A DNA stretch of 64,000 nucleotides, from the NCBI GenBank assembly GCA_964016885.1, contig OZ024741.1, forward strand, positions 64,108,001 through 64,172,000. Reading direction: 5' to 3'. Positions within the stretch are counted from its first letter, which is position 1; every line of letters starts with the position of its first letter. The DNA comes from Eledone cirrhosa. Taxonomy: Eukaryota. The translations under genes were made by a program, and so were the position numbers. Below the pieces are notes generated by a model. That model was given only the letters and a program-made list of their open reading frames with translations, was not told the origin of the DNA and ran no database searches. Below are positions 2,371 to 55,210 of this stretch, piece by piece.

Positions 2371-2377
2371 AAGTTCG

Positions 2378-3801: not shown

Positions 3802-3822
3802 ATATATATATATATATATATA
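3802..3822. repeat. (TA)n microsatellite
   Basis: Directly visible. Confidence 0.9.
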
Positions 3823-3883
3823 ATGACGGTGATGAATTTGTTTTGCAAGGATTTTGATATGAAATCGTCGAAACATATATTAT

Positions 3884-3998
3884 TATACTTGGGGAGGGTC
3901 ATATTGTTATAATAGTATTGCCAGAAATAATAACAGAACACACTCACTGTTTGGTTGGTTTTCGCTTCTGCATCTTTTAACTCTCCATAGTTAATTTA
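3884..3998 (-). repeat. Left (unexpanded) arm of a ~115-bp inverted repeat containing a single CCAACCAAA seed
   Basis: The reverse complement of 3951-3998 matches 4166-4213 (3 mismatches in 48 bp). The reverse complement of 3884-3950 matches 52901-52967 (5 mismatches in 67 bp). Confidence 0.95.
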
Positions 3999-6029
3999 TT
4001 TGGCAATCAATGTTTATCATTGACTGACCAACGGTTAAAAATACAGATATAAATATATATAGTCTAACAAAGTTCTTTCGTTGCACATCTGCAACATCAT
4101 CAGTGGTACTATAATCATGTTTCCTCCTAGTGTGTTGTATGGTAATGTTCACGCCATATTTATTTTAAATTAACTATGGAGATATAAAAGATGCAGAAGC
4201 GAAATCCAACCAAACCAACCAAACCAACCAAACCAACCATACCAACCAAACTAAACACACCAACCATACCAGCCACACCAACCACACCAACCATACCAAC
4301 CAAACCAACGATACCAACCAAGCCAACAATAACAACCACACCAACCACACCAACCATACCAACCAAACCAACCATACCAACCTAACCAACCACACCAACC
4401 ACACCAACCATACCAACCAAACAAACCATACCAACCATACCAACCAAACCAACCACACCAACCACAGCAACAATACCAACCAAACCAACTACATCCAAAC
4501 CAACCAACCACATCAACCATACCAACCAAACCAACCAAACCAACCAAACCAACCACACCAATCATACCAACCAAACCAACTACACCAACCATACCAACCA
4601 AACCAACCAAACCAACAAAACCATCCAAACCAACCAAACCTACCACACCAACCGTACGAACCAAACCAACCATACAAAGCTAACCAACCATACCAACCAA
4701 ACCAACCACACCAACCGTACCAACCAAACCAACCACACCAACCATACCAACCATACCAACCAAACCAACCACACCAACCATACCAACCATACCAACCAAG
4801 CCAACAACACCAACCACAACAACCAAACCAACCAAACCAACCACACCAACCATACCAACCATACCAACCATACCAACCATACCAACCAAAGCAACCACAC
4901 CAACCACAGCAACCATACCAACCAAACCAACCATACCAACTAAACCAACCACACCAACCACACCAACCAAACCAACCAAACCAACCACACCAAACACATC
5001 AACCATACCAACCAAACCAACCATACCAACCAAACCAAAGAAACCAACCACACCAACCATACCAACCAAACCAACCATACCAACCAAAGCAACCACACCA
5101 ACCACAGCAACCATACCAACCAAACCAACCATACCAACTAAACCAACCACACCAACCACACCAACCAAACCAACCAAACCAACCACACCAACCACATCAA
5201 CCATACCAACCAAACCAACCATACCAACCAAACCAAAGAAACCAACCACACCAACCAAGCCAACAACACCAACCACAACAACCAAACCAACCAAACCAAC
5301 CACACCAACCACACCAACCACACCAACCATGCCAACCATACCAACCATACCAACCACATCAACCATACCAACCAAACCAACCATACCAACCAAATCAAAG
5401 AAACCAACCACACCAACCGAACCAACCACACCAACCATACCAACCAAACCAACCATACCAACCAAACCAAAGAAACCAACCACACCAACCAAAACAACCA
5501 CACCAACCATACCAACCAAACCAACCATACCAACCAAACCAAAGAAACCAACCACACCAACCAAACCAACCACACCAACCATAACAACCACACCAACCAC
5601 ACCAACCATACTAACCAAACCAACCACACCAACCACACCAACCAAACCAACCAAACCAACCACACCAACCATACCAACCATACCAACCATACCAACCAAA
5701 CCAACCACACTAACCATACCAACCAAACCAACAACACCAACCACACCAACCGAACCAACGAAACCAACCACACCAACCATACCAACCATACCAACCATAC
5801 CAACCACACCAACCACAACAACCATACCAACCATACCAACCAAACCAACCAGACCAACCATACCAACCATACCAACCAAACCAACCAAACCAACCACACC
5901 AACCACACCAACCGTACCAACCAAACCAACCATACCAACCAAACCCCCCACACCAACCACACCAACGATACCAACCAGACCAACCATACCAACCACACCA
6001 ACCACACCAACCAAACCAACCATACTAAC

Positions 6030-9000
6030 CAAACTAACCACACCAACCATACCAAATATACCAACCACACCAACCACACTAACCAAACAAACCATACCAA
6101 CCATACCAACCATACCAACCACACCAACCGTACCAACCAAACCAACCACAACAACCATACCAACCATACCAACCAAACCAACCACACCAACCATACCAAC
6201 CATACCAACCAAACCAACCAGACCAACCATACCAACCATACCAACCAAACCAACCAAACCAACCACACCAACCACACCAACCATACCAACCACACCAACC
6301 ATACCAACCAAACCAACCACACCAACCATAACAACCATACCAACCACACCAACCACACTAACCATACCAACCAAACCAACCATACCAACCAAACCAACCA
6401 CACCAACCATAACAACCATACCAACCACACCAACCACACTAACCATACCAACCAAAACAACCATACCAACCATACCAACCAGACCAACCACACCAACCGT
6501 ACCAACCAAACCAACCACAACAAATATACCAACCATACCAACCAAACCAACCACACCCACCATACCAACCATACCAACCAAACCAACCAGACCAACCATA
6601 CCAACCATACCAACCAAACCAACCAAACCAACCACACCAACCACACCAACCATACCAACCAAACCAACCATACCAACCAAACCACCCACACCAACCACAC
6701 CAACGATACCAACCAAACCAACCATACCAACCACACCAACCACACCAACCAAACCAACCAAACCAAACAAACAAAAAAAACCAACCATACCAACCAAACT
6801 AAACACACCAACCATACCAACCATACCAACCACACCAACCACGCCAACCATACCAACCAAACCAACCATACCAACCAAACCAACCACACTAACCACGCCA
6901 ACCACACCAAACATACAAACCAAACCAACCAAACCAACCAAACCAACCACACCAACCACACCAACCATACCAACCAAACCAACCATACCAACCATACCAC
7001 CCAAACCAACCACACCAACCACACCAACCATACCAACCAAACCAACCATACCAACCAAACCAACCAAACCAACCACACCAACCACACCAACCATACCAAC
7101 CAAGCCAACCATACCAACCACACCAACCACACCAACCAAACCAACCAAACCAAACAAACAAACCAAACCAACCATACCAACCAAACTAAACACACCAACC
7201 ATACCAACCATACCAACCACACCAACCACGCCAACCATACCAACCAAACCAACCATACCAACCAAACCAACCACACTAACCACGCCAACCACACCAAACA
7301 TACAAACCAAACCAACCAAACCAACCAAACCAACCACACCAACCACACCAACCATACCAACCAAACCAACCATACCAACCATACCACCCAAACCAACCAC
7401 ACCAACCACACCAACCATACCAACCAAACCAACCATACCAACCAAACCAACCAAACCAACCACACCAACCACACCAACCATACCAACCAAGCCAACCATA
7501 CCAACCACACCAACCACACCAACCAAACCAACCAAACCAAACAAACAAACCAAACCAACCATACCAACCAAACTAAACACACCAACCATACCAACCATAC
7601 CAACCACACCAACCACGCCAAACATACCAACCAAACCAACCATACCAACCAAACCAACCACACCAACCACGCCAACCACACCAAACATACAAACCAAACC
7701 AACCAAACCAACCAAACCAACCACACCAACCACACCAACCATACCAACCAAACCAACCATAACAACCATACCACCCAAACCAACCACACCAACCACAGCA
7801 ACCATACCAACCAAACCAACCATACCAACTAAACCAACCACACCAACCACATCAACCAAACCAACCACACCAACCACACCAACCATACCAACCATACCAA
7901 CCAAACCAACCATACCAACCAAACCAACCAAACCAACCACACCAACCACACCAACCATACCAACCAAACCAACCATACCAACCAAACAAAAGAAACCAAC
8001 CACACCAACCATACCAACCATACCAACCATACCAACCAAACCAAACAAAACAACCACACCAACCATGCCAACCATACCAACCAAACCAACCAAACCAACA
8101 ACACCAACCACATCAACCATACCAACCAAACCAACCATACCAACCAAACCAAAGAAACCAACCACACCAACCGTACCAACCATACCAACCAAACCAAACA
8201 AACCAACCACACCAACCATGCCAACCATACCAACCATACCAACCAAACTAACCACACCAACCATACCAACCACGCCAACAACACCAACCATACCAGCCAA
8301 ACCAACCATACCAACCAAACCAACAACACCAATCATACCAACCAAACCAACCACACCAACCACACCAACCAAACCAACCATACCAACCATAAAAACCAAA
8401 CCAACCATACCAACCAAACCAAACACAACAACCAAACCAACCATAACAACCATACCAACCAAACCAACTAGACCAACCAAACCAACCACACCAACCACAC
8501 CAACCATACCAACTAAACCAACCAAACCAACCAAACCAACCAAACCAACCAAACCAACCATACAAACCAAACTAAACACACCAACCATACCAACCACACC
8601 AACCACACCAACCATACCAACCAAACCAACGAAACCAACCAAACCAACCACACCAACCATACCAACCAAACCAACGAAACCAACCAAACCAACCATACCA
8701 ACCACACCAACCACACCAACCATACCAACCAAACCAACGAAACCAACGAAACCAACCACACCAACCATACCAACCAAACCAACCATACCAACCACACCAA
8801 CCATACCAACCAAACCAACCACACCAACCACAGCAACCATACGAACCAAACCAACCATACCAACTAAACCAACCACACCAACCACACCAACCATACCAAC
8901 CAAACCAAACATACCAACCAAACCAACCAAACCAACCACGCCAACCATACCAACCAAACCAACCATACCAACCAAACCAACCACACCAACCACGCCAACC

Positions 9001-20200: not shown

Positions 20201-22129
20201 ACCAACCATACCAACCACACCAACCATACCAACCATACCAACCATACCAACCAAACCAACGCACCAACCATACCAACCATACCAACCAAACCAATCACAC
20301 CAACCGCACCAACCAAACTATCCAAACCAACCATACCAACATAAACAAATCACACCAACCATACCAACCATACCAAGCAAACCAACCACACCAACCAAAC
20401 CAACCATACTAACCAAACCAACCACACCAACCATACCAACCAAACCAACCAAACCAACCATACCAACCAAACCAACCACACCAACCATACCAACCATACC
20501 AACCAAACCAACCACACCAACCATACCAACCATACCAACCACACCAACCATACCAACCATACCAACCACACCAACCATACCAACCAAACCAACCACACCA
20601 ACCATACCAACCAAACCAACCACACCAACCATACCAACCAAACCAACCACACCAACCATACCAACCAAACCAACCAGACCAACCATACCAACCAAACCAA
20701 CCACACCAACCATACCAACAAAACCAACCAAACCAACCAAACCAACCATACCAACCAAACCAACCACACCAACCAAACCAACCATACCAACCAGACCAAC
20801 CACACGAACCATACCAACCAAACCAACCACACCAACCATACCAACCATACCAGCCACACCAACCACACCAAACATACCAACTAAACCAACGATACCAACC
20901 AAACCAACCACACCAACCACGCCAACCACACCAACCATACCAACCAAACCAAAGAAACCAACCACACCAACCATACCAACCATACCAACCATACCAATCA
21001 TACCAACCAAACCAACCACACCAAACATACCAACCAAACCAACCACACCAACCATACCAACCAAACCAACCAAACCAACCATACCAACCAAACCAACCAC
21101 ACCAACCATACCAACCATACCAACCAAACCAACCACACCAACCATACCAACCACACCAACCATACCAACCATACCAACCACACCAACCATACCAACCATA
21201 CCAACCACACCAACCATACCAACCAAACCAACCACACCAACCATACCAACCAGACCAACCATACCAACCAAACCAACCACACCAACCATACCAACAAAAC
21301 CAACCAAACCAACCAAACCAACCATACCAACCAAACCAACCACACCAACCAAACCAACCATACCAACCAGACCAACCACACGAACCATACCAACCAAACC
21401 AACCACACCAACCATACCAACCATACCAGCCACACCAACCACACCAAACATACCAACTAAACCAACGATACCAACCAAACCAACCACACCAACCACGCCA
21501 ACCACACCAACCATACCAACCAAACCAAAGAAACCAACCACACCAACCATACCAACCATACCAACCATACCAACCATACCAACCAAACCAACCAAACCAA
21601 CCACGCCAACCACACCAACCATACCAACCAGACCAACCACACGAACCATACCAACCAAACCAACCACACCAACCATACCAACCATACCAGCCACACCAAC
21701 CACACCAAACATACCAACTAAACCAACGATACCAACCAAACCAACCACACCAACCACGCCAACCACACCAACCATACCAACCAAACCAAAGAAACCAACC
21801 ACACCAACCATACCAACCACACCAACCATACCAACCATACCAACCAAACCAACCAAACCAACCACGCCAACCACACCAACCATACCAACCAAACCAAAGA
21901 AACCAAACACGCCAACCATACCAACCATACCAACCATACCAATCATACCAACCAAACCAACCACACCAAACATACCAACCAAACTAACCACACCAACCAT
22001 ACCAACCACACCAACCACACCAACCATAACAACCAAACCAACCACACCAACCTCACCAATCAGGCCAACCAAACCAACCACACCAACCATACCAACCAAA
22101 CCAACCATACCAACCATACCAACCACACC

Positions 22130-25100
22130 AACCATACCAACCAAACCAAAGAAACCAACCACACCAACCATACCAACCATACCAACCAAACCAACCAAAC
22201 CAACCACGCCAACCACACCAACCATACCAACCAAACCAAAGAAACCAAACACGCCAACCATACCAACCATACCAACCATACCAATCATACCAACCAAACC
22301 AACCACACCAAACATACCAACCAAACTAACCACACCAACCATACCAACCACACCAACCACACCAACCATAACAACCAAACCAACCACACCAACCATACCA
22401 ACCAAACCAACCATACCAACCATACCAACCACACCAACCATACCAACCAAACCAACCATACCAACCATACCAACCAAACCAACCATACCAACCAAACCAA
22501 CCACACCAACCATACCAACCAAACCAACCATACCAACCAAACCAACAACACCAACCACACCAACCAAACCAACCAAACCAACCACACCAACCATACCAAC
22601 CATACCAACCATACCAACCACACCAACCACACCAACCATACCAACCAAACCAACCACACCAACCATACCAAGCATACCAACCACACCAACCACATTAACC
22701 ATACCAACCAAACCAACCACACCAACCATACCAACCATACCAACCAAACCAACCACACCAACCATACCAACCATACCAACCAAACCAACCAAACCAACCA
22801 CACCAACCAAACCAACCATACCAACCAAACCAACCAAACCAACCATACCAACCAAACCAACCACACCAACCATACCAAACATACCAACCACACCAACCAC
22901 AATAACCATACCAACCAAACCAACCACACCAACCCCACCAACCACAACAAACACACCAACCGTACCAACCAAACCAACCATACCAACCATACCAACCAAA
23001 CCAACCATACCAACTAAACCAACCACACCAACCACACCAACTATACCAACCAAACCAACCAAACCAACGATACCAACGATACCAACCAAACCAACCACAC
23101 CAACCACACCAACCACAACCAACCATACCAACCAACCCAACCATACCAACCAACCACACCAACCACACCAACCATACCAACCAAACCAACCATACCAACC
23201 ATACCAACTAAACCAACCACACCAACCACACCAACCATACCAACCAAACCAAACATACCAACCAAACCAACCAAACCAACCACACCAAACATACCAACCA
23301 TACCAACCAAACCAACCATACCAAATATACCAACCACACCAACCACAATAACGATACCAACCAAACCAACAACACCAACCACAACAACCAAACCAACCAA
23401 ACCAACCACACCAACCATACCAACCATACCAACCATACCAACCACACCAACCACAACAACCATACCAACCAAACCAACCACACCAACCATACCAACCATA
23501 CCAACCATACCAACCACACCAACCACAACAACCATACCAACCAAACCAACCATACCAAACAAACCAACCAAACCAACCATACCAAATATACCAACCACAC
23601 CAACCACAATAACCATACCAACCAAACCAACCATACCAACCATACCAACCAGACCAACCACACCAACCGTACCAACCAAACCAACCACACCAACCACACC
23701 AACTATAGCATCCAAACCAACTGAACCAACCATACCAACCAAACCAACCAAACCAACCATACCAAACATACCAACCACACCAACCACAACAACCATACCA
23801 ACCAAACCAACCATAACAACCAAACCAACCACACCAACCACACCAACCATACCAACCACAGCAACCATACCAACCAAACCAACCAAACCAACCAAACCAA
23901 CGAAACCAACCACACCAACCAAACCAACCACACCAACCACAACAACCATACCAACCAAACCAACCATACCAACCACACCAACCATACCAACCATACCAAC
24001 CAAACCAACCACACCAACCACACCAACCATACCAACCATACCAACCATACCAACCATACCAACCAAACCAACCACACCAACCACACCAAATATACCAACT
24101 AAACCAACCAAACAAACGAAACCATCCACACCAACCACACCAACCACACCAACCACACCAACCATACCAACCATACCAACCATACCAACCATACCAACCA
24201 AAGCAACCTCACCAACCACAGCAACCATACCAACCAAACCAACCATACCAACTAAACCAACCACACCAACCACACCAACCAAACCAACCACACCAACCAC
24301 ATCAACCATACCAACTAAACCAACCATACCAACCAATAAAAGAAACCAACCACACCAACCATACCAACCAAACCAACCACACCAAACATACCAACCAAAC
24401 CAACCACACCAACCATAACAACCACACCAACCACACCAACCATACCAACCACACCAACCACACCAACCATACTAACCAAACCAACCACACCAACCACACC
24501 AACCACACCAACCACACCAACCACATTAACCATACCAAGCAAACCAACCACACTAACCATACCAACCAAACAAACCACACCAACCAAACCAACCAAACCA
24601 ACCACAACAACCATACCAACCATACCAACCATACCAACCACACCAACCACACCAACCATACCAACCAAACCAACCACACCAACCATACCAACCATACCAA
24701 CCACACCAACCAAACCAACCATACCAACCAAACCAACCAAACCAACCATACTAACCAAACTAACCACACCAACCATAACAACCATACCAACCATACCAAC
24801 CATACCAACCATACCAACCACACCAACCACACCAACCATACCAACCAAACCAACCACACCAACCATACCAACCACACCAACCATACCAACCAAACAAACC
24901 ACACCAACCAAACCAACCAAACCAACCACAACAACCATACCAACCATACCAACCATACCAACCACACCAACCACACCAACCATACCAACCAAACCAACCA
25001 CACCAACCATACCAACCATACCAACCACACCAACCAAACCAACCATACCAACCAAACCAACCAAACCAACCATACTAACCAAACTAACCACACCAACCAT

Positions 25101-28100
25101 AACAACCATACCAACCATACCAACCATACCAACCATAACAACCATACCAACCATACCAACCATACCAACCATACCAACCAAACCAACCATACCAACCACA
25201 CCAACCAGACCAACCACACCAACCGTACCAACCAAACCAACCACAACAACCATACCAACCATACCAACCAAACCAACCACACCAACCATACCAACCATAC
25301 CAACCAAACCAACCAGACCAACCATACCAACCATACCAACCATACCAACCAAACCAACCAAACCAACCACACCAACCACACCAACCATACCAACCAAACC
25401 AACCATACAAACCAAACCAACCACACCAACCAAACCAACCATACCAACCAAACCAACCAAACCAACCATACTAACCAAACCAACCGCACCAACCATAACA
25501 ACCATACCAACCACACCAACCACACTAACCATACCAACCAAAACAACCATACCAACCATACCAACCAAACCAAAGAAACCAACCACACCAACCATACCAA
25601 CCATACCAACCAAACCAACCAAACCAACCACGCCAACCACACCAACCATACCAACCAAACCAAAGAAACCAAACACGCCAACCATACCAACCATACCAAC
25701 CATACCAATCATACCAACCAAACCAACCACACCAAACATACCAACCAAACTAACCACACCAACCATACCAACCACACCAACCACACCAACCATAACAACC
25801 AAACCAACCACACCAACCATACCAACCAAACCAACCATACCAACCATACCAACCACACCAACCATACCAACCAAACCAACCATACCAACCATACCAACCA
25901 AACCAACCATACCAACCAAACCAACCACACCAACCATACCAACCAAACCAACCATACCAACCAAACCAACAACACCAACCACACCAACCAAACCAACCAA
26001 ACCAACCACACCAACCATACCAACCATACCAACCATACCAACCACACCAACCACACCAACCATACCAACCAAACCAACCACACCAACCATACCAAGCATA
26101 CCAACCACACCAACCACATTAACCATACCAACCAAACCAACCACACCAACCATACCAACCATACCAACCAAACCAACCACACCAACCATACCAACCATAC
26201 CAACCAAACCAACCAAACCAACCACACCAACCAAACCAACCATACCAACCAAACCAACCAAACCAACCATACCAACCAAACCAACCACACCAACCATACC
26301 AAACATACCAACCACACCAACCACAATAACCATACCAACCAAACCAACCACACCAACCCCACCAACCACAACAAACACACCAACCGTACCAACCAAACCA
26401 ACCATACCAACCATACCAACCAAACCAACCATACCAACTAAACCAACCACACCAACCACACCAACTATACCAACCAAACCAACCAAACCAACGATACCAA
26501 CGATACCAACCAAACCAACCACACCAACCACACCAACCACAACCAACCATACCAACCAACCCAACCATACCAACCAACCACACCAACCACACCAACCATA
26601 CCAACCAAACCAACCATACCAACCATACCAACTAAACCAACCACACCAACCACACCAACCATACCAACCAAACCAAACATACCAACCAAACCAACCAAAC
26701 CAACCACACCAAACATACCAACCATACCAACCAAACCAACCATACCAAATATACCAACCACACCAACCACAATAACGATACCAACCAAACCAACAACACC
26801 AACCACAACAACCAAACCAACCAAACCAACCACACCAACCATACCAACCATACCAACCATACCAACCACACCAACCACAACAACCATACCAACCAAACCA
26901 ACCACACCAACCATACCAACCATACCAACCATACCAACCACACCAACCACAACAACCATACCAACCAAACCAACCATACCAAACAAACCAACCAAACCAA
27001 CCATACCAAATATACCAACCACACCAACCACAATAACCATACCAACCAAACCAACCATACCAACCATACCAACCAGACCAACCACACCAACCGTACCAAC
27101 CAAACCAACCACACCAACCACACCAACTATAGCATCCAAACCAACTGAACCAACCATACCAACCAAACCAACCAAACCAACCATACCAAACATACCAACC
27201 ACACCAACCACAACAACCATACCAACCAAACCAACCATAACAACCAAACCAACCACACCAACCACACCAACCATACCAACCACAGCAACCATACCAACCA
27301 AACCAACCAAACCAACCAAACCAACGAAACCAACCACACCAACCAAACCAACCACACCAACCACAACAACCATACCAACCAAACCAACCATACCAACCAC
27401 ACCAACCATACCAACCATACCAACCAAACCAACCACACCAACCACACCAACCATACCAACCATACCAACCATACCAACCATACCAACCAAACCAACCACA
27501 CCAACCACACCAAATATACCAACTAAACCAACCAAACAAACGAAACCATCCACACCAACCACACCAACCACACCAACCACACCAACCATACCAACCATAC
27601 CAACCATACCAACCATACCAACCAAAGCAACCTCACCAACCACAGCAACCATACCAACCAAACCAACCATACCAACTAAACCAACCACACCAACCACACC
27701 AACCAAACCAACCACACCAACCACATCAACCATACCAACTAAACCAACCATACCAACCAATAAAAGAAACCAACCACACCAACCATACCAACCAAACCAA
27801 CCACACCAAACATACCAACCAAACCAACCACACCAACCATAACAACCACACCAACCACACCAACCATACCAACCACACCAACCACACCAACCATACTAAC
27901 CAAACCAACCACACCAACCACACCAACCACACCAACCACACCAACCACATTAACCATACCAAGCAAACCAACCACACTAACCATACCAACCAAACAAACC
28001 ACACCAACCAAACCAACCAAACCAACCACAACAACCATACCAACCATACCAACCATACCAACCACACCAACCACACCAACCATACCAACCAAACCAACCA

Positions 28101-28985
28101 CACCAACCATACCAACCATACCAACCACACCAACCAAACCAACCATACCAACCAAACCAACCAAACCAACCATACTAACCAAACTAACCACACCAACCAT
28201 AACAACCATACCAACCATACCAACCATACCAACCATACCAACCACACCAACCACACCAACCATACCAACCAAACCAACCACACCAACCATACCAACCACA
28301 CCAACCATACCAACCAAACAAACCACACCAACCAAACCAACCAAACCAACCACAACAACCATACCAACCATACCAACCATACCAACCACACCAACCACAC
28401 CAACCATACCAACCAAACCAACCACACCAACCATACCAACCATACCAACCACACCAACCAAACCAACCATACCAACCAAACCAACCAAACCAACCATACT
28501 AACCAAACTAACCACACCAACCATAACAACCATACCAACCATACCAACCATACCAACCATAACAACCATACCAACCATACCAACCATACCAACCATACCA
28601 ACCAAACCAACCATACCAACCACACCAACCAGACCAACCACACCAACCGTACCAACCAAACCAACCACAACAACCATACCAACCATACCAACCAAACCAA
28701 CCACACCAACCATACCAACCATACCAACCAAACCAACCAGACCAACCATACCAACCATACCAACCATACCAACCAAACCAACCAAACCAACCACACCAAC
28801 CACACCAACCATACCAACCAAACCAACCATACAAACCAAACCAACCACACCAACCAAACCAACCATACCAACCAAACCAACCAAACCAACCATACTAACC
28901 AAACCAACCGCACCAACCATAACAACCATACCAACCACACCAACCACACTAACCATACCAACCAAAACAACCATACCAACCATAC
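22130..28985 (+). repeat. Near-perfect 3424-bp tandem duplication within the array
   Basis: Several ORF-track peptides are identical at offset 3424 (22285/25709, 23041/26465, 25084/28508), including indel irregularities at about 23115/26539 and 24331/27755. Confidence 0.92.
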
Positions 28986-37900: not shown

Positions 37901-39754
37901 AACCATACCAACCAAACCAACCAGACCAACCATACCAACCATACCAACCATACCAACCAAACCAACCAAACCAACCACACCAACCACACCAACCATACCA
38001 ACCAAACCAACCATACCAACCAAACCAACCACACCAACCAAACCAACCATACCAACCAAACCAACCAAACCAACCACACCAACCACATCAACCATACCAA
38101 CCAAACCAACCATACAACCAAACCAAAGAAACCAACCACACCAACCATACCAACCAAACCAACCACACCAAACATACCAACCAAACCAACCACACCAACC
38201 ATAACAACCACACCAACCACACCAACCATACCAACCACACCAACCACACCAACCATACTAACCAAACCAACCACACCAACCACACCAACTACACCAACCA
38301 CACCAACCACATTAACCATACCAACCAAACCAACCACACTAACCATACCAACCAAACCAACCACACCAACCAAACCAACCAAACCAACCACACCAACCAC
38401 ACCAACCATACCAACCAAACCAACCACACCAACCACACCAACCATACCAACCACACCAACCATACCAACCAAACCAACCAAACCAACCACACCAACCACA
38501 CCAACCACACCAACCAAACCAACCACACCAACCACACCAACCGTACCAACCAAACCAACCAAACCAACCACACCAACCATACCAACCAAACCAACCAAAC
38601 CAACCAAACCACCAAACCAACCAAACCAACCAAACCAACCACACCAACCACACCAACCACACCAACCAAACCAACCACACCAACCACACCAACCATACCA
38701 ACCAAACCAACCACACCAACCACACCAACCATACCAACCAAACCAACCAAACCAACCACACCAACCATACCAACCAAACCAACCAAACCAACCAAACAAC
38801 CAAACCAACCAAACCAACCACACCAACCACACCAACCAAACCAACCAAACCAACCAAACCAACCAAACCAACCAAACCAACCAAACCCACCACACCAACC
38901 ACACCAACCAAACCAACCAAGCCAACCAAACCAACCAAACCAACCAAACCAACCAAACCAACCAAACCAACCACACCAACCACACCAACCACACCAACCA
39001 CACCAACCAAACCAACCACACCAACCACACCAACCATACCAACCAAACCAACCAAACCAACCACACCAACCATACCAACCAAACCAACCAAACCAACCAA
39101 ACCACCAAACCAACCAAACCAACCAAACCAACCAAACCAACCATACCAACCACACCATACATACCAACCAAACCAACCAAACCAACCACACCAACCACAC
39201 CAACCACACCAACCAAACCAACCACACCAACCACACCAACCATACCAACCCCAACCACACCAACCATACCAACCAAACCAACCAAACCAACCAAACCACC
39301 ACACCAACCAAACCAACCAAACCAACCATACCAACCACACCAACCACACCAACCAAACCAACCAAACCAACCACACCAACCAAACCAACCAAACCCACCA
39401 CACCAACCACACCAACCAAACCAACCAAACCAACCAAACCAACCAAACCAACCAAACCAACCACACCAACCACACCAACCAAAGCAACCAAACCAACCAA
39501 ACCAACCACACCAACCACACCAACCACACCAGCCATACCAACCACACCAACCATACCAACCAAACCAACCAAACCAACCACACCAACCACACCAACCACA
39601 CCAACCAAACCAACCACACCAACCACACCAACCATACCAACCAAACCAACCAAACCAACCACACCAACCATACCAACCAAACCAACCAAACCAACCAAAC
39701 CACCAAACCAACCAAACCAACCACACCAACCACACCAACCAAACCAACCAAACC

Positions 39755-42700
39755 AACCAAACCAACCACAACAACCATACCCACCAAACCAACCAAACCA
39801 ACCATACCAACCAATCCAACCACACCAACCACACCAACCATACCAACCAATCCAACCACACCAACCACACCAACCATACCAACCAAACCAACCACACCAA
39901 CCATACCAACCACACCAACCACACCAACCATACCAACAACACCAACCACACCAACCATACCCACCAAACCAACCAAACCAACCAAACCAACCACACCAAC
40001 CATACCAATCAAACCAACCACACCAACCATATCAACCACACCAACCACACCAACCATACCCACCAAACCAACCAAACCAACCACACCAACCATACCAACC
40101 ACACCAACCACACCAACCATACCAACAACACCAACCACACCAACCATACCCACCAAACCAACGAAACCAACCAAACCCACCACACCAACCATACCAACCA
40201 AACCAACCACACCAACCATACCAACCACACCAACCACACCAACCATACCCACCAAACCAACCAAACCAACCACACCAACCACACCAACCACACCAACAAC
40301 ACCAACAACACCAACCACACCAACCATACCCACCAAACCAACCAAACCAACCACACCAACCATACCAACCACACCAACCACACCAACCATACCAACCAAA
40401 CAAACCATACCAACCAAACAAACCATACCAACCAATCCAACCACACCAACAACACCAACCACACCAACCATACCCACCAAACCAACCAAACCAACCACAC
40501 CAACCATACCAACCACACCAACCACACCAACCATACCAACCAAACAAACCATACCAACCATACCAACCAAACCAACCAAACCAACCACACCAACCATACC
40601 CACCAAACCAACCAAACCAACCATACCAACCAATCCAACCACACCAACCACACCAACCAAACCAACCAAACCAAACAAACAATCCAAACCAACCATACCA
40701 ACCAAACTAAACACACCAACCATACCTACCATACCAACCACACCAACCACGCCAACCATACCAACCAAACCAACGATACCAACCAAACCAACCACACCAA
40801 CCACGCCAACCACACCAACCATACCAACCATACCAACCACACCAACCAGACCAACCACACCAACCACACCAACCATACCAACCAAACCAACCATACCAAC
40901 CATACCACCCAAACCAACCACACCAAACACAGCAACCATACCAACCAAACCAACCATACCAACTAAACAAACCACACCAACCACACCAACCATACCAACC
41001 AAACCAACCATACCAACCAAACCAACCAAACCAACCACACCAACCACACCAACCATACCAACCAATCCAACCAAACCAACCAAACCAACCATACCAACCA
41101 CACCAACCACACCAACCATACCAACCATACCAACCAAACCAAACAAACCAACCACACCAACCATGCCAACCATACCAACCATACCAACCAAACCAACCAC
41201 ACCAACCATACCATCCAAACTAACCACACCAACCATACCAACCACGCCAACAACACCAACCATACCAACCAAACCAACCACACCAACCACACCAACCATA
41301 CCAACCAAACCAACCATACCAACCAGACCAACTACACCAACCGTACCAACCAAACCAACCACACCAACCATACCAACCATACCAACCAAACCAACCACAC
41401 CAACCATACCAACCATACCAACCAAACCAACCACACCAACCATACCAACCACACCAACCACACCAACCATACCAACCATACCAACCAGACCAACCACACC
41501 AACCGTACCAACCACACCAACCAAACCAACCACACCAACCACACCAACCATACCAACCACACCAACCATACCAACCACACCAACCAAACCAACCAAACCA
41601 ACCAAACCAACCAAACCAACCATACCAACCATACCAACCATACCAACCAGACCAACCACACCAACCGTACCAACCATACCAACCAAACCAACCACACCAA
41701 CCACCCTAACCATACCAACCACACCAACCATACCAACCACACCAACCAAACCAACCAAACCAACCAAACCAACCAAACCAACAATACCAACCATACCAAC
41801 CAAACCAACCACACCAACCACACCAACCACACCAACCACACCAACCAAACCAACCACACCAACCATACCAACCAAACCAACCAAACAAACCAAACCAACC
41901 AAACCAACCATACCAACCAAACCAACCACACCAACCACACCAACCACACCAACCATACCAACCAAACCAACCACACCAACCAAACCAACCAAACCAACCA
42001 AACCAACCAAACCAACCATACCAACCACACCAACCACACCAACCACACCAACCATACCAACCAAACCAACCACACCAACCAAACCAACCAAACCAACCAA
42101 ACCAACCAAACCAACCAAACCAACCAAACCAACCAAACCAACCAAACCAACCATACCAACCACACCAACTACACCAACCACACCAACCACACCAACCCAC
42201 CAACCATACCAACCAAACCAACCAAACCAACCACACCAACCACACCAACCACACCAACCACACCAACCATACCAACCAAACCAACCAAACCAACCACACC
42301 AACCACACCAACCACACCAACCACACCAACCAAACCAACCATACCAACCACACCAACCACACCAACCAAACCAACCAAACCAACCAAACCAACCACACCA
42401 ACCACACCAACCACACCAACCAACCAACCAAACCAACCAAACCAACCAAACCAACCAAACCAACCACACCAACCAAACCAACCATACCAACCACACCAAC
42501 CACACCAACCAAACCAACCAAACCAACCAAACCAACCAAACCAACCACACCAACCACACCAACCATACCAACCACACCAACCACACCAACCAAACCAACC
42601 ACACCAACCACACCAACCATACCACCAAACCAACCAAACCAACCACACCAACCATACCAACCAAACCAACCAAACCAACCAAACCACCACACCAACCACA

Positions 42701-45700
42701 CCAACCACACCAACCACACCAACCAAACCAACCAAACCAACCATACCAACCACACCAACCACACCAACCAAACCAACCAAACCAACCAAACCAACCACAC
42801 CAACCAAACCAACCAAACCAACCACACCAACCACACCAACCAAACCAACCAAACCAACCAAACCAACCAAACCAACCACACCAACCACACCAACCAAACC
42901 AACCAAACCAACCAAACCAACCACACCAACCACACCAACAACACCAACCATACCAACCACACCAACCATACCAACCAAACCAACCAAACCAACCACACCA
43001 ACCACACCAACCACACCAACCAAACCAACCACACCAACCACACCAACCATACCAACCAAACCAACCAAACCAACCACACGAACCATACCAACCAAACCAA
43101 CCAAACCTACCAAACCACCAAACCAACCAAACCAACCACACCAACCACACCAACCAAACCAACCAAACCAACCAAACCACCACACCAACCACACCAACCA
43201 CACCAACCACAACAGCCATAGCCACCAAACCAACCAAACCAACCAAACCAACCAAACCACCACACCAACCACACCAACCACACCAACCAAACCAACCAAA
43301 CCAACCACAACAACCATACCCACCAAACCAACCAAACCAACCATACCAACCAAACCAACCAAACCACCACACCAACCACACCAACCACACCAACCAAACC
43401 AACCAAACCAACCACAACAACCATACCCACCAAACCAACCAAACCAACCATACCAACCAATCCAACCACACCAACCACACCAACCATACCAACAACACCA
43501 ACCACACCAACCATACCCACCAAACCAACCAAACCAACCAAACCAACCACACCAACCATACCAACCAAACCAACCACACCAACCATACCAACCACACCAA
43601 CCACACCAACCATACCCAACAAACCAACCAAACCAACCACACCAACCATACAAACCACACCAACCACACCAACCATACCAACAACACCAACCACACCAAC
43701 CATACCCACCAAACCAACCAAACCAACCACACCAACCACACCAACAACACCAACCACACCAACCATACCAACCAAACCAACCAAACCAACCACACCAACC
43801 ATACCAACCACACCAACCACAACAACCACACCAACCATACCAACCAAACAAACCATACCAACCATACCAACCAAACCAACCAAACCAACCACACCAACCA
43901 TACCCACCAAACCAACCAAACCAACCATACCAACCAATCCAACCACACCAACCACACCAACCAAACCAACCAAACCAAACAAACAAACCAAACCAACCAT
44001 ACCAACCAAACTAAACACACCAACCATACCAACCATACCAACCACACCAACCACGCCAACCATACCAACAAAACCAACGATACCAACCAAACCAACCACA
44101 CCAACCACGCCAACCACACCAAACATACAAACCAAACCAACCATACCAACCAAACTAAACACACCAACCATACCAACCATAGCAACCACACCAACCAGAC
44201 CAACCACACCAACCACACCAACCATACCAACCAAACCAACCATACCAACCATACCACCCAAACCAACCACACCGAACACAGCAACCATACCAATCAAACC
44301 AACCATACCAACTAAACAAACCACACCAACCACACCAACCATACCAACCAAACCAACCATACCAACCAAACCAACCAAACCAACCACACCAACCACACCA
44401 ACCATACCAACCAATCCAACCAAACCAACCAAACCAACCATACCAACCACACCAACCACACCAACCATACCAACCATACCAACCAAACCAAACAAACCAA
44501 CCACACCAACCATGCCAACCATACCAACCATACCAACCAAACCAACCACACCAACCAAACCAACCACAACAACCATACCCACCAAACCAACCAAACCAAC
44601 CATACCAACCAATCCAACCACACCAACCACACCAACCATACCAACCAATCCAACCACACCAACCACACCAACCATACCAACCAAACCAACCACACCAACC
44701 ATACCAACCACACCAACCACACCAACCATACCAACAACACCAACCACACCAACCATACCCACCAAACCAACCAAACCAACCAAACCAACCACACCAACCA
44801 TACCAATCAAACCAACCACACCAACCATATCAACCACACCAACCACACCAACCATACCCACCAAACCAACCAAACCAACCACACCAACCATACCAACCAC
44901 ACCAACCACACCAACCATACCAACAACACCAACCACACCAACCATACCCACCAAACCAACGAAACCAACCAAACCCACCACACCAACCATACCAACCAAA
45001 CCAACCACACCAACCATACCAACCACACCAACCACACCAACCATACCCACCAAACCAACCAAACCAACCACACCAACCACACCAACCACACCAACAACAC
45101 CAACAACACCAACCACACCAACCATACCCACCAAACCAACCAAACCAACCACACCAACCATACCAACCACACCAACCACACCAACCATACCAACCAAACA
45201 AACCATACCAACCAAACAAACCATACCAACCAATCCAACCACACCAACAACACCAACCACACCAACCATACCCACCAAACCAACCAAACCAACCACACCA
45301 ACCATACCAACCACACCAACCACACCAACCATACCAACCAAACAAACCATACCAACCATACCAACCAAACCAACCAAACCAACCACACCAACCATACCCA
45401 CCAAACCAACCAAACCAACCATACCAACCAATCCAACCACACCAACCACACCAACCAAACCAACCAAACCAAACAAACAATCCAAACCAACCATACCAAC
45501 CAAACTAAACACACCAACCATACCTACCATACCAACCACACCAACCACGCCAACCATACCAACCAAACCAACGATACCAACCAAACCAACCACACCAACC
45601 ACGCCAACCACACCAACCATACCAACCATACCAACCACACCAACCAGACCAACCACACCAACCACACCAACCATACCAACCAAACCAACCATACCAACCA

Positions 45701-48700
45701 TACCACCCAAACCAACCACACCAAACACAGCAACCATACCAACCAAACCAACCATACCAACTAAACAAACCACACCAACCACACCAACCATACCAACCAA
45801 ACCAACCATACCAACCAAACCAACCAAACCAACCACACCAACCACACCAACCATACCAACCAATCCAACCAAACCAACCAAACCAACCATACCAACCACA
45901 CCAACCACACCAACCATACCAACCATACCAACCAAACCAAACAAACCAACCACACCAACCATGCCAACCATACCAACCATACCAACCAAACCAACCACAC
46001 CAACCATACCATCCAAACTAACCACACCAACCATACCAACCACGCCAACAACACCAACCATACCAACCAAACCAACCACACCAACCACACCAACCATACC
46101 AACCAAACCAACCATACCAACCAGACCAACTACACCAACCGTACCAACCAAACCAACCACACCAACCATACCAACCATACCAACCAAACCAACCACACCA
46201 ACCATACCAACCATACCAACCAAACCAACCACACCAACCATACCAACCACACCAACCACACCAACCATACCAACCATACCAACCAGACCAACCACACCAA
46301 CCGTACCAACCACACCAACCAAACCAACCACACCAACCACACCAACCATACCAACCACACCACCATACCAACCACACCAACCAAACCAACCAAACCAACC
46401 AAACCAACCAAACCAACCATACCAACCATACCAACCATACCAACCAGACCAACCACACCAACCGTACCAACCATACCAACCAAACCAACCACACCAACCA
46501 CCCTAACCATACCAACCACACCAACCATACCAACCACACCAACCAAACCAACCAAACCAACCAAACCAACCAAACCAACAATACCAACCATACCAACCAA
46601 ACCAACCACACCAACCACACCAACCACACCAACCACACCAACCAAACCAACCACACCAACCATACCAACCAACCAACCAAACAAACCAAACCAACCAAAC
46701 CAACCATACCAACCAAACCAACCACACCAACCACACCAACCACACCAACCATACCAACCAAACCACCACACCAACCAAACCAACCAAACAACCAAACCAA
46801 CCAACCAAACCAACCATACCAACCACACCAACCACACCAACCACACCAACCATACCAACCAAACCAACCACACCAACCAAACCAACCAAACCAACCAAAC
46901 CAACCAAACCAACCAAACCAACCAAACCAACCAAACCAACCAAACCAACCATACCAACCACACCAACTACACCAACCACACCAACCACACCAACCCACCA
47001 ACCATACCAACCAAACCAACCAAACCAACCACACCAACCACACCAACCACACCAACCACACCAACCATACCAACCAAACCAACCAAACCAACCACACCAA
47101 CCACACCAACCACACCAACCACACCAACCAAACCAACCATACCAACCACACCAACCACACCAACCAAACCAACCAAACCAACCAAACCAACCACACCAAC
47201 CACACCAACCACACCAACCAAACCAACCAAACCAACCAAACCAACCAAACCAACCAAACCAACCACACCAACCAAACCAACCATACCAACCACACCAACC
47301 ACACCAACCAAACCAACCAAACCAACCAAACCAACCAAACCAACCACACCAACCACACCAACCATACCAACCACACCAACCACACCAACCAAACCAACCA
47401 CACCAACCACACCAACCATACCACCAAACCAACCAAACCAACCACACCAACCATACCAACCAAACCAACCAAACCAACCAAACCACCACACCAACCACAC
47501 CAACCACACCAACCACACCAACCAAACCAACCAAACCAACCATACCAACCACACCAACCACACCAACCAAACCAACCAAACCAACCAAACCAACCACACC
47601 AACCAAACCAACCAAACCAACCACACCAACCACACCAACCAAACCAACCAAACCAACCAAACCAACCAAACCAACCACACCAACCACACCAACCAAACCA
47701 ACCAAACCAACCAAACCAACCACACCAACCACACCAACAACACCAACCATACCAACCACACCAACCATACCAACCAAACCAACCAAACCAACCACACCAA
47801 CCACACCAACCACACCAACCAAACCAACCACACCAACCACACCAACCATACCAACCAAACCAACCAAACCAACCACACGAACCATACCAACCAAACCAAC
47901 CAAACCAACCAAACCACCAAACCAACCAAACCAACCACACCAACCACACCAACCAAACCAACCAAACCAACCAAACCACCACACCAACCACACCAACCAC
48001 ACCAACCACAACAGCCATAGCCACCAAACCAACCAAACCAACCAAACCAACCAAACCACCACACCAACCACACCAACCACACCAACCAAACCAACCAAAC
48101 CAACCACAACAACCATACCCACCAAACCAACCAAACCAACCATACCAACCAAACCAACCAAACCACCACACCAACCACACCAACCACACCAACCAAACCA
48201 ACCAAACCAACCACAACAACCATACCCACCAAACCAACCAAACCAACCATACCAACCAATCCAACCACACCAACCACACCAACCATACCAACAACACCAA
48301 CCACACCAACCATACCCACCAAACCAACCAAACCAACCAAACCAACCACACCAACCATACCAACCAAACCAACCACACCAACCATACCAACCACACCAAC
48401 CACACCAACCATACCCAACAAACCAACCAAACCAACCACACCAACCATACAAACCACACCAACCACACCAACCATACCAACAACACCAACCACACCAACC
48501 ATACCCACCAAACCAACCAAACCAACCACACCAACCACACCAACAACACCAACCACACCAACCATACCAACCAAACCAACCAAACCAACCACACCAACCA
48601 TACCAACCACACCAACGACACCAACCATACCAACCAAGCAAACCATACCAACCATACCAACCATACCCACCAAACCAACCAAACCAACCACACAAACCAT

Positions 48701-48870
48701 ACCAACCACAACAACCACACCAACCATACCAACCAAACCAACCAAACCAACCATACCAACCAATCCAACCACACCAACCACACCAACCAAACCAACCAAA
48801 CCAAACAAACAAACCAAACCAACCATACCAACCAAACTAAACACACCAACCATACCAACCATACCAACCA
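39755..48870 (+). repeat. About 4798-bp tandem duplication within the array
   Basis: Identical ORF-track peptides at offset 4798 (40009/44807, 40707/45505, 40963/45761). The second copy has additional 1-bp indels around 46360-46800. Confidence 0.88.
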
Positions 48871-51800
48871 CACCAACCAAACCAACCAAACCAACCAAAC
48901 CAACCATACCAACCAAACCAACCACACCAACCACACCAACCACACCAACCAAACCAACCATACCAACTAAACAAACCACACCAACCACACCAACCATACC
49001 AACCAAACCAACCATACCAACCAAACCAACCAAACCAACCACACCAACCACACCAACCATACCAACCAATCCAACCAAACCAAACAAACCAACCATACCA
49101 ACCACACCAACCACACCAACCATACCAACCATACCAACCAAACCAAACAAACCAACCACACCAACCATGCCAACCATACCAACCATACCAACCAAACCAA
49201 CCACACCAACCATACCATCCAAACTAACCACACCAACCATACCAACCACGCCAACAACACCAACCATACCAACCAAACCAACCACACCAACCACACCAAC
49301 CATACCAACCAAACCAACCATACCAACCAGACCAACTACACTAACCATACCAACCATACCAACCAAACCAACCACACCAACCATACCAACCATACCAACC
49401 AAACCAACCACACCAACCATACCAACCATACCAACCAAACCAACCACACCAACCATACCAACCACACCAACCAAACAAACCAAACCAACCAAACCAACCA
49501 AACCAACCATACCAACCATACCAACCATACCAACCAGACCAACCACACCAACCGTACCAACCATACCAACCAAACCAACCACACCAACCAAACTAACCAT
49601 ACCAACCACACCAACCAAACCAACCAAACCAACCAAACCAACCAAACCAACCATACCAACCATACCAACCAAACCAACCACACCAACCACACCAACCACA
49701 CCAACCACACCAACCAAACCAACCACACCAACCACACCAACCATACCAACCACACCAACCACACCAACCAAACCAACCAAACCAACCAAACCAACCATAC
49801 CAACCATACCAACCAAACCAACCACACCAACCACACCAACCACACCAACCACACCAACCAAACCAACCACACCAACCACAACAACCATACCAACCACACC
49901 AACCATACCAACCAAACCAACCAAACCAACCAAACCAACCAAACCAACCACACCAACCATACCAACCATACCAACCAAACCAACCATACCAACCAAACCA
50001 ACCACACCAACCATACCAACCACACCAACCAAACAAACCAAACCAACCAAACCAACCAAACCAACCATACCAACCATACCAACCATACCAACCAGACCAA
50101 CCACACCAACCGTACCAACCATACCAACCAAACCAACCACACCAACCAAACCAACCACACCAACCACACCAACCACCCTAACCATACCAACCACACCAAC
50201 CAAACCAACCAAACCAACCAAACCAACCAAACCAACCATACCAACCATACCAACCAAACCAACCACACCAACCACACCAACCACACCAACCACACCAACC
50301 AAACCAACCACACCAACCATACCAACCAAACCAACCAAACCAACCAAACCAACCAAACCAACCACACCAACCATACCAACCATACCAACCAAACCAACCA
50401 CACCAACCACACCAACCACACCAACCAAACCAACCACACCAACCATACCAACCAAACCAACCAAACCAACCAAACCAACCAAACCAACCACACCAACCAT
50501 ACCAACCACACCAACCAAACCAACCATACCAACCAAACCAACCACACCAACCATACCAACCATACCAACCATACCAACCACACCAACCATACCAACCATA
50601 CCAACCAAACCAACCATACCAACCAAACCAACCAAACCAACCAAACCAACCACACCAACCACACCAACCACACCAACCATACCAACCATACCAACCAAAC
50701 CAACCATACCAACCAAACCAACCAAACCAACCAAACCAACCACACCAACCATACCAACCAAACCAACTACACCAACCATACCAACCATACCAACCATACC
50801 AACCATACCAACCAAACCAACCAAACCACCACACCAACCACACCAACCAAACCAACCACACCAACCACACCAACCATACCAACCAAACCACCACACCCAC
50901 CATACCAACCATACCAACCACTCCAACCACACCAACCATACCAACCATACCAACCAAACCAACCACACCAACCACACCAACCACACCAACCACACCAACC
51001 AAATCAACCAAACCAACCAAACCAACCATACCAACCACACCAACCACACCAACCACACCAACCACACCAACCACACCAACCACACCAACCACACCAACCA
51101 TACCATCCAAACCAACCACACCAACCAAACCAACCAAACCAACCAAACCAACCAAACCAACCAAACCAACCAAACCAACCAAACCAAGCAAACCAACCAA
51201 ACCAACCATACCAACCACACCAATCACACCAACCACACCAACCACACCAACCACACCAACCATACCAACCAAACCAACCAAACCAACCACACCAACCACA
51301 CCAACCACACCAACCACACCAACCATACCAACCAAACCAACCAAACCAACCACACCAACCACACCAACCACACCAACCACACCAACCACACCAACCACAC
51401 CAACCACACCAACCAAACCAACCAAACCAACCAAACCAACCAAACCAACCATACCAACCACACCAACCACACCAACCATACCAACCAAACCAACCAAACC
51501 AACCAAACCAACCAAACCAACCAAACCAACCATACCAACCACACCAACCACACCAACCAAACCAACCAAACCAACCAAACCAACCACACCAACCACACCA
51601 ACCACACCAACCATACCAACCACACCAACCATACCAACCAAACCAACCAAACCAACCAAACCAACCAAACCAACCACACCAACCACACCAACCAAACCAA
51701 CCAAACCAACCAAACCAACCACACCAACCACACCAACCACACCAACCAAACCAACCAAACCAACCAAACCACCACACCAACCACACCAACCACACCAACC

Positions 51801-52964
51801 AAACCAACCAAACCAACCACAACAACCATACCCACCAAACCAATCAAACCAACCATACCAACCACACCAACCATACCAACAACACCAACCACACCAACCA
51901 TACCCACCAAACCAACCAAATCAACCAAACCAACCACACCAACCATACCAACCAAACCAACCACACCAACCATACCAACCACACCAACCACACCAACCAT
52001 ACCCACCAAACCAACCAAACCAACCACACCAACCATACCAACCACACCAACCACACCAACCATACCAACAACACCAACCACACCAACCATACCCACCAAA
52101 CCAATCAAACCAACCAAACCCACCACACCAACCATACCAACCAAACCAACCACACCAACCATACCAACCACACCAACCACACCAACCATACCTACCAAAC
52201 CAACCAAACCAACCACACCAACCACACCAACAACACCAACCACACCAACCATACCCACCAAACCAACCAAACCAACCGCCGCAACCATACCAACCACACC
52301 AACCACACCAACCATACCAACCAAACAAACCATACCAACCATACCAACCACACCAACCACACCAACCATACCAACCAAACCAACCACACCAACCATACCA
52401 ACCAAACCAACCACACCAACCATACCAACCACACCAACCACACCGACCATACCCACCAAACCAACCAAACCAACCAATCCAACCACACCAACAACACCAA
52501 CCAAACCAACCATACCCACCAAACCAACCAAACCAACCACACCAACCATACCAACCACACCAACCACACCAACCATACCAACCAAACAAACCATACCAAC
52601 CATACCAACCAAACCAACCAAACCAACCACACCAACCATACCCACCAAACCAACCAAACCAACCATACCAACCAATCCAACCACACCAACCATACCAACC
52701 AAACCAACCAAACCAACCACACCAACCACACCAACCACACCAACCAAACCAACCATACCCACCAAACCAACCAAACCAACCATACCAACCAATCCAACCA
52801 CACCAACCATACCAACCAAACCAACCAATCCAACCACACCAACCACACCAACCATACCAACCAAACCAACCAATCCAACCATACCAACCACACCAACCAA
52901 ACAGTGAGTGTGTTCTGTTATTATTTCTGGCAATATAATCATAACAATATGACCCTTCCTAAGT

Positions 52965-53042
52965 ATATATATATATAACATAAATATATATATACATACA
53001 AATGTGTTTATATATATGAATATATATGTACGTATATATCTA

Positions 53043-53103
<61 letters not shown>
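52965..53103. repeat. (TA)n/(TG)n microsatellite cluster
   Basis: Directly visible; it abuts the right TIR end. Confidence 0.9.
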
Positions 53104-53107
<4 letters not shown>

Positions 53108-53295
53108 TGTCAGGTTGCTATTGAGTGCTACTGGTAACATGTAATCCAGTACAACCTGTCGCATTATCGGGTCGTCGGAGTCTAAACCGGCAACCCCACC
53201 AAGTTTACTTGGTGAGGAGGGTGATTTTGGACACCCTGCAAGACAAAAAAAAACAAAACCTGACAAAGGGCGGAAGGACTCATACGATTCAACGG
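53108..53295 (+). mobile_element. 5' fragment of a non-autonomous RTE-related element (family B head)
   Basis: Alignable by eye to the reverse complement of 55640-55819; both copies begin at TGTCAGGT. Confidence 0.75.
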
Positions 53296-53373
53296 TCATA
53301 CAAAAATGTATAAATATGTCTATACATATGTATATGTATATATGTGTATGCATGTGTGCATGTGCATGTATAT

Positions 53374-55100: not shown

Positions 55101-55210
55101 ATACATACATACATACATACATACATACATACATACATACATACATACATACATACACATACACACACATATACACATACATACATAGACATACAAATAT
55201 ATACATATAT
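55100..55210. repeat. (CATA)n microsatellite
   Basis: Directly visible. Confidence 0.95.

Follow-up and report, generated by a model that had tools for sequence, protein, structure and literature searches.

The window analysed here, 64,000 nt of Eledone cirrhosa (contig OZ024741.1, positions 64,108,001 to 64,172,000), is occupied for the most part by a single tandem array of 48.7 kb at 4206-52901, with the consensus unit CCAACCA[C/T/A]A and the G-rich strand on minus. With a probability of about 0.78, we consider it to be a non-coding 9-bp minisatellite or satellite at the one CCAACCAAA(C) site within an arm of a high-copy dispersed repeat that resembles a miniature inverted-repeat transposable element (MITE), and to be only incidentally capable of forming G-quadruplexes (G4).

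4206..52901, no strand: tandem array of 5,415 9-bp units, both the first and the last being CCAACCAAA (Tandem Repeats Finder, TRF, and profile alignment)

TRF recovers one array (4206-52899, period 9, 5,411.8 copies, 87% matches), and a cyclic profile alignment divides it into units of which 5,370 are without indel; 114 distinct full units occur. Position 8 is split almost equally among C (1,785), T (1,760) and A (1,751), with G in 74 (n = 5,370). The properties are those of a satellite, namely a short unit repeated head to tail over a long distance (48.7 kb, period 9), non-coding and near-neutral change with frameshifting indels (stops as expected, omega-like ratio 0.82), and a higher-order structure produced by block duplication (13 segments, cyclic variant order). 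A telomeric array was rejected, because 11 kb of DNA rich in microsatellites and long interspersed nuclear elements (LINEs) lie beyond it and the unit varies in three ways.

The DNA that flanks the array belongs to an inverted pair of arms and is found again, 91-94% identical, a short distance upstream.

3875..3998, minus: inverted paralog of both array flanks, with one repeat unit between them (alignment, 94% and 90.6%)
3949..3958, minus: single seed unit CCAACCAAAC in the unexpanded copy (alignment)
4166..4205, plus: left array flank, which forms the inner portion of the inverted pair's second arm (alignment)
52902..52976, plus: right array flank, the outer part of that second arm (alignment)
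3999..4165, no strand: 167-bp spacer between the inverted arms, opening with a small imperfect hairpin at ~3999-4031 (alignment)
3330..4205, no strand: high-copy dispersed repeat DNA hosting the array, one or several abutting elements (run alignments)
3803..3822, no strand: (TA)n run on the left outer side of the inverted pair (sequence)
52964..53104, no strand: (TA)n run on the right outer side, inside which the right arm ends (sequence, TRF)

Positions 3949-3998 align in inverted orientation to 4166-4215 (94% over 50 bp) and 3875-3959 to 52892-52976 (90.6% over 85 bp), so that the upstream copy, 200 bp from the array, holds a single CCAACCAAAC at the array's place. The stop-to-stop translations agree, since one peptide is read on minus at 3798-3995 and, interrupted by the array, on plus. 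On these alignments 3875-3998 is the unexpanded (empty) site of the array.

Four runs were aligned to 2530-4225: X1 and X22 (both organism A), X4 (organism B) and X6. From organism A, 8,877 contigs of X1 and 262,480 reads of X22 aligned, nearly all on 3330-4225 and with identities from below 90 to above 99%, a depth that is not itself a copy number; X4 gave 0 contigs on 2530-4225 and X6 only 5 weak ones. The DNA flanking the array is thus a high-copy dispersed repeat in the organism A runs. Moreover, 18 X22 reads (3 starts) continue from 4210 directly into sequence like the right flank, the pattern expected where a family copy lacks the array. High copy number in these runs together with the lack of any open reading frame (ORF) of note is typical of MITEs. 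The arms of ~125 bp around the 167-bp spacer are evident in this copy (z -8.8), where family-wide repeats, two copies or a local inversion would look alike, and the (TA)n on both outer sides makes a TA target duplication unreadable; hence we call the host MITE-like and leave its class, MITE or HINE, unassigned. A tRNA-derived short interspersed nuclear element (SINE) was rejected as the host because no tRNA was found. Rfam gave 7 matches on 1-4400, all to microRNA models on AT/GT microsatellites and far below the gathering score, and the left-junction motif gave 0 matches in metagenome contigs. A second fold-back lies at 63515-63775, with 71-bp arms that are 99% complementary, a 119-bp spacer and (TA)n on both outer sides; its plan is like that of the array's host, and its sequence is unrelated by BLAST.

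Internally the array bears the marks of repeated block copying. Thirteen long duplicated segments cover 50% of the units at lags of 0.4-8 kb, two of them being as follows.

22128..28984, no strand: recent tandem duplication, lag 3,424 bp, 382 of 382 units identical, either real or an assembly duplication (self-comparison)
39753..48611, no strand: tandem duplication, lag 4,798 bp, 99% unit identity, with 1-bp deletions in common (self-comparison)

Further duplications have lags of ~5.3-5.8 kb and identities of 96-99%. Divergence from the consensus is 3.8% per site at the left and 1.6-2.4% at the right, and the right part may be younger or more recently homogenised. The two arms differ from each other by 6-9%, and the lower divergence within the array fits growth after the arms had separated. 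Nearly all indels (44 of 45) are not multiples of 3, and 29 of the 45 fall into 11 clusters of near-identical context (0.12% for random pairs), indicating that they were copied by duplication. The 1-bp deletions, which give 8-bp units, are almost confined to 38100-51800 and the 1-bp insertions are confined to 4494-34974; these indels, many of which share their context, look propagated.

The position-8 variants also follow one another in a preferred order. Forward steps along the array (C>T 898, T>A 957, A>C 794) exceed the reverse ones (T>C 280, A>T 356, C>A 205), the direction C>T>A, about 3:1, is the same in all 9 full 600-unit blocks, and the variants are already mixed within a few units of either end. 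A strict present-day 27-bp period was rejected (lag-3 autocorrelation 0.318 against a baseline of 0.324). Two forms of growth from a pure seed were likewise rejected, one in which position 8 mutates independently (120 runs, with an asymmetry no higher than 0.023 against 0.33 seen) and one with two founder mutations (near-equal thirds in 0 of 300 runs, a few of them undefined). When a (CTA)n ancestor is scrambled in simulation by mixed short and long duplications and deletions, the thirds are kept and forward, reverse and same steps reach 0.49/0.15/0.36, compared with 0.50/0.17/0.34 seen. These simulations suggest that the C, T and A forms go back to two old substitutions in an ordered higher-order unit amplified as a block, and not to thousands of tolerated loop mutations. 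Such a unit, in the simplest case a 27-bp trimer, would have been amplified first, having arisen in place or come from another array through 10 bp that match the seed. Slippage by one or a few units, together with unequal exchange or break-induced copying of 0.4-8 kb blocks, would then have scrambled and lengthened the array.

The first-pass annotation had described the minus strand as a natural polymer made up of the aptamer that binds thrombin (TBA/HD1), a product of systematic evolution of ligands by exponential enrichment (SELEX), and as regards the letters this is correct. The first copy, CCAACCACACCAACC at 4278-4292, is the TBA 15-mer in reverse complement.

4278..4292, minus: first exact TBA/HD1 15-mer of 1,271 (exact match)

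Counted with overlaps, CCAACC-xxx-CCAACC occurs with ACA 1,271 times, ATA 1,163, AAA 1,127 and AGA 64. Without overlaps there are 944 exact TBA 15-mers on the minus strand, and 2,025 of the 2,705 possible 15-mers (75%) have the TBA-type pattern GG-TT-GG-TNT-GG-TT-GG intact. The earlier observation that the high-frequency polymorphism lies at the middle base of the central loop also agrees with the near-equal thirds at position 8. However, 50 unit-shuffled arrays gave 1,274 +/- 12 TBA matches, the level of the 1,271 observed, and the thousand matches therefore come down to a single coincidence, a dimer that happens to read as TBA, copied over and over by tandem amplification. Thrombin being a protein of vertebrates, the binding function of the aptamer has no bearing on this array. 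The aptamer link is a coincidence without functional support, and a low-complexity SELEX aptamer should be expected to turn up in simple repeats when genomes are scanned. Compared with TBA/HD1 as studied in PMC13204723, the exact 15-mer is shared and the TAT, TTT and TCT forms found here are variants of that study; here, by contrast, the 15-mer arises as one register of a tandem 9-bp repeat within genomic duplex DNA, with no selection on tetrads. We found no report in the open-access literature of a natural satellite made of TBA, nor of this repeat in octopods. The main text of PMC13282606, on Octopus vulgaris, has 0 occurrences of 'satellite' at a word start, and its supplements could list the repeat.

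An exact scan for five consecutive half-sites returned at least 121 metagenome, 9 viral and 28 prokaryote loci (L001-L158). These short (CCAACCAHA)n arrays of bacteria, giant viruses and metagenomes have a unit identical to the one described here, and 67 of the 158 loci among the matches listed contain the exact TBA complement. Unlike the 5,415 mixed units of this array, they comprise 5-23 units, are nearly homogeneous and often lie within ORFs; all three variants are present here, whereas 0 of the 158 among the matches listed carry all three. None of the 158 was found to resemble the flanks of this array. Several separate short arrays occur on each of the metagenome and viral contigs of L002, L006, L007, L019, L026, L033, L051, L055, L063-L065, L069, L122 and L128-L130, many of them within long ORFs as QP, PT or TN repeats, which looks like a repeat-prone lineage.

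Selection on the fold was judged by the comparison that the first-pass annotation had proposed, that of the tetrad guanines (C1, C2, C5 and C6 of the unit) with the loop thymines (A3, A4, A7 and A9). Non-consensus bases number 201, 204, 214 and 262 at the four tetrad positions and 65, 66, 78 and 112 at the four loop positions (n = 5,370 each). The GG-TT-GG half-sites had been called largely invariant, yet of the eight otherwise fixed positions their four Gs vary most. Variants with common flanking units were collapsed into events under six clustering settings, and tetrad events exceeded loop events in every one (443/162, 334/137 in the loosest, 417/154, 462/168, 409/157 and 457/171), that is 2.7 times with duplicates collapsed (417 vs 154). 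Because a bias from GC to AT by itself raises change at C, two further checks were added. Changes of C to A or T outnumber those of A to C or G by 340:109 (3.1), compared with 1.6 expected with the flank GC of 0.387 at equilibrium, and under this correction there appears to be no deficit of change at G sites. The number of copies per event, a comparison independent of mutation rates, is 2.13 for G4-breaking and 2.09 for loop variants (Mann-Whitney p 0.38). The earlier suggestion of selection on structure therefore fails the sequence test set for it in that annotation, since tetrad positions change more often than loops (334-462 vs 137-171 events) and are amplified equally. Selection against the weakest loop, TCT, was rejected as well: the AGA unit that encodes it is present in 74 copies from ~35 events, the level of adjacent A>G changes, and its rarity equals that of ordinary point mutation and needs no selection. 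In the array C>A changes outnumber C>T (452 vs 286 raw; 202 vs 138 of 571 events), which is unusual for neutral nuclear DNA and could reflect damaged exposed GG steps or mis-registered copying.

Whether the array could nevertheless fold is a separate matter. According to PMC13204723, in 100 mM KCl the TGT, TAT, TTT and TCT 15-mers form chair-type quadruplexes with unimolecular unfolding, and the three substituted loops are less stable than TGT; melting temperatures across cosolutes are 52.4-58.3 °C for TGT, 46.1-53.4 °C for TAT, 43.6-51.7 °C for TCT and 47.7-55.7 °C for TTT. The array itself has a mean G4Hunter score of 0.87, only 0.6% of its 25-nt windows reach the value of 1.2 that the authors of that score regard as a good compromise (PMC4770238), and it has no motif of four GGG runs. 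TBA itself scores 1.13, however, which indicates that G4Hunter under-rates the two-tetrad fold. The idea of an array folded as beads thus holds for isolated 15-mers, and the low propensity score of the array speaks against it; single-stranded beads would be plausible at marine temperatures. No report on multimers with a 3-nt linker was found in the open-access literature.

A role of such folds in growth is the alternative that survives best, unlikely as we consider it. Unselected, transient two-tetrad folds on the G-rich strand would have stalled polymerases during replication or repair and thereby aided growth or rearrangement. The extreme strand skew of the array is in its favour, as is the G4-dependent instability in yeast of the human minisatellite CEB1 (PMC3486850), and the commonest change, C>A (G>T on the G-rich strand; 202 of 571 events), would fit oxidative damage of exposed GG. 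On the other hand, variants that break the G4 show no deficit in amplification, slippage and unequal exchange are explanation enough, and in all 158 other loci listed the unit reaches at most 23 copies, although short contigs may cut arrays. CEB25, by a heading of PMC3486850, is without G4-dependent rearrangements, which implies that G4 capacity alone is not enough. Long arrays with a foldable G-rich strand are known from both CEB1 and CEB25, and the (TTAGG)n telomere of Bombyx mori, which forms a chair-type quadruplex (PMC2647293), is likewise foldable unit by unit (G4Hunter 0.8 for the TTAGG repeat vs 0.87 here). In contrast to that telomere, this array is interstitial, with unique and LINE DNA on both sides and without a telomeric overhang. 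It is also weaker than repeats with GGG runs and, unlike CEB1, has no evidence of G4-dependent instability.

Also doubtful is an origin of the three-variant 9-mer as an older, multi-species satellite, seeding itself through the 10-bp CCAACCAAAC in thousands of element copies, with TBA-like quadruplexes promoting its copying and growth. If so, the dispersed element would supply one G4-capable satellite with landing pads across the genome, and the locus studied here, 200 bp from its empty twin, would record the state before and after seeding. The run of organism B bears on this reading. X4 holds 0.22 of the sampled array words, with 0 contigs aligned on the flank (a zero that may be a filter effect); homogeneous repeats could give ~1% of the query words, and mixed consensus words make up 10% of the distinct words (23% by position). 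Organism B thus seems to carry a mixed array also, which is a lead towards an older shared family and not a result. Runs X5-X20, which comprise six more organism labels, marine metagenomes and five runs of RNA or presumed RNA, have word shares of 0.05-0.13, and these shares are not used as evidence of expression, habitat or distribution.

We regard it as very unlikely that the array is or was coding, as a mucin-like exon of Pro-Thr-Thr/Ile/Lys on plus or Val/Met/Leu-Val-Gly on minus that was frameshifted by assembly error or decay. A splice donor-like motif directly follows the last unit.

52904-52909, plus: donor-like GTGAGT, also in the unexpanded copy at 3942-3947, minus

In-phase stops number only 6 in the Pro-Thr-x (PTx) frame and 4 in the x-Val-Gly (xVG) frame, compared with 51-174 in each of the remaining four frames; an omega-like ratio of 0.82 (p 0.024) was obtained, and elsewhere the unit lies within long ORFs as PT, QP or TN repeats (46 of the 158 loci listed by the rule applied here, 102 being unclear). 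However, these two frames offer few one-step stops, which explains their scarcity, and stop events occur as expected (3 vs 3.7). Changes at A sites show no real contrast between synonymous positions and others (79-91 vs 68-81), the 44 frameshifts are mostly common to duplicated blocks, and in-frame stops stand at 4185 and 4383. The GTGAGT is found in the empty copy as well, so the donor-like motif belongs to the dispersed repeat. A search with 400 aa of the PTx frame gave 90 compositional matches out of 7,998 candidates (lengths 701-2,000 only), none of them named as a cephalopod protein, which is weak evidence. An open frame with splice sites in a gene, as in mucin-like exons rich in proline, threonine and serine, is lacking, and a present-day exon was rejected on the frameshifts, the expected number of stops and the donor motif in the repeat. 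The W-L-V frame on minus, in which position 8 is synonymous, was also rejected (108 in-phase stops). The trimer could still derive from a coding repeat elsewhere.

Two other explanations can be dealt with briefly. That selection keeps the array as a polymer of TBA-like quadruplex beads, serving as a chromatin or protein platform, is highly improbable: 75% of possible beads are intact, the three common 15-mers all fold as oligonucleotides (PMC13204723) and the commonest polymorphism falls outside the tetrads, but G positions have 2.7 times more events than loop T with equal amplification, uninterrupted consensus runs have a median of 3 units, two thirds of the units carry fold-destabilising loops, and the mean G4Hunter score of 0.87 is under 1.2. 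Stacking of the 15-bp duplex, presumably worth ~-21 kcal/mol, would moreover compete with the fold, and duplex energy dominates G4 folding in PMC8136832. We give equally little credence to the view that assembly error produced most of the array, by over-expansion or by stitching several loci together; the 3,424-bp duplication is 100% identical and the best run contains only 0.37 of the sampled array words, yet internal divergence extends over most of the array (114 distinct full units; 1.6-3.8% per site), and its ends join two halves of one element precisely, unlike a chimeric join.

Several points weigh against our interpretation of a non-coding satellite within a MITE-like repeat. The X1 and X22 sequences are nearly absent from the unique flank 2530-3327, so organism A may not be the species of the window. 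The length of the array is that of the assembly, and array, arms and neighbours were analysed within the 64,000-nt window, so that further arrays and further copies of the host repeat may lie elsewhere in this genome. The trimer simulations give a lag-2 autocorrelation of 0.29-0.36 against 0.25 seen, and only a single-unit model fits lag-2, which yet misses the forward, reverse and same fractions; hence the founding unit and the sizes of the events are only loosely constrained. The Pro-Thr-x frame shows slightly more synonymous changes than expected (193 vs 168.5, p 0.024), an excess driven by C6. Finally, the equilibrium correction presumes that flank GC is at equilibrium, and a stronger true bias from GC to AT could mask weak selection on G.

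The remaining features of the window are mostly retroelements and other dispersed repeats.

37-354, minus: stop-to-stop frame of 105 aa with the look of real protein, possibly a remnant of a retroelement or host exon (no Pfam match)
53021-53688, 54879-55452, 55421-56225 and 63009-63316, both orientations: copies of a dispersed repeat with (ACAT)n runs, 69-100% alike
56301-58088, plus: 5'-truncated retrotransposon without long terminal repeats (non-LTR) with an intact 595-aa frame, RVT_1 and zf-RVT (Pfam)
58393-61347, minus: LINE in pieces, with an endonuclease, a reverse transcriptase and, at the C-terminus, a frame of C2H2 zinc fingers, interrupted by stops and frameshifts (Pfam)
61725-62925, plus: frameshifted 3' fragment of a non-LTR element like that at 56301, ending in (AAT)n (no Pfam match)

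Downstream of the array, Pfam matches in 4 of 7 frames identify LINE remnants (RVT_1, zf-RVT, Exo_endo_phos and C2H2 fingers). The frame at 56301-58088 has, by eye, a nuclease-like C-terminal region, and among the 120 relatives listed for 56301-58085 a protein of Argonauta hians has the highest identity (66% over 49%). The LINE at 58393-61347 is presumably RTE-like, and the repeat at ~1545-1610 we take to be an octopus SINE. Together with the (ACAT)n runs, this repeat and the Argonauta hians relative point to a probable octopod genome. The copies with (ACAT)n represent one or two repeats, and 55475-55543 and 56157-56225 form a perfect 69-bp inverted pair. This LINE-rich neighbourhood fits the active RTE and Dong-R4 LINEs of Octopus vulgaris, whose genome is 66% repeats (PMC13282606).

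Tandem arrays borne by non-autonomous mobile elements are known from other molluscs, namely the DTC84 MITE of Donax trunculus (PMC3879986) and the Cg_HINE Helentrons of Crassostrea gigas (PMC7492417). With these the present locus has in common a tandem array in a high-copy element with inverted repeats (here the arms of one copy) and neighbouring microsatellites, ordered variants, and a link between mobile elements and satellite birth. In those families, however, the repeats form a regular module at the centre (DTC84 has as many as five cores), whereas the element described here normally has one 9-bp unit in its arm and a single copy has 5,415. HINE/pearl elements also have sub-terminal repeats, a 3' stem-loop and a target duplication.

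As a case of G4 biology the locus matters little, for foldable tandem arrays with GG runs are known already and the fold is not conserved here. If element-borne seeding or quadruplex-driven growth were true, it would provide a natural model for weak two-tetrad quadruplexes in repeat expansion. From the ~570 distinct substitution events a mutation spectrum of the locus can be drawn, in which C>A is unusually frequent. The main value of the locus is a clean record of satellite birth, in which an unexpanded twin stands beside a 48.7-kb array with a directional variant order throughout; together, the empty twin and the ordered variants are a tidy new example of a known process.

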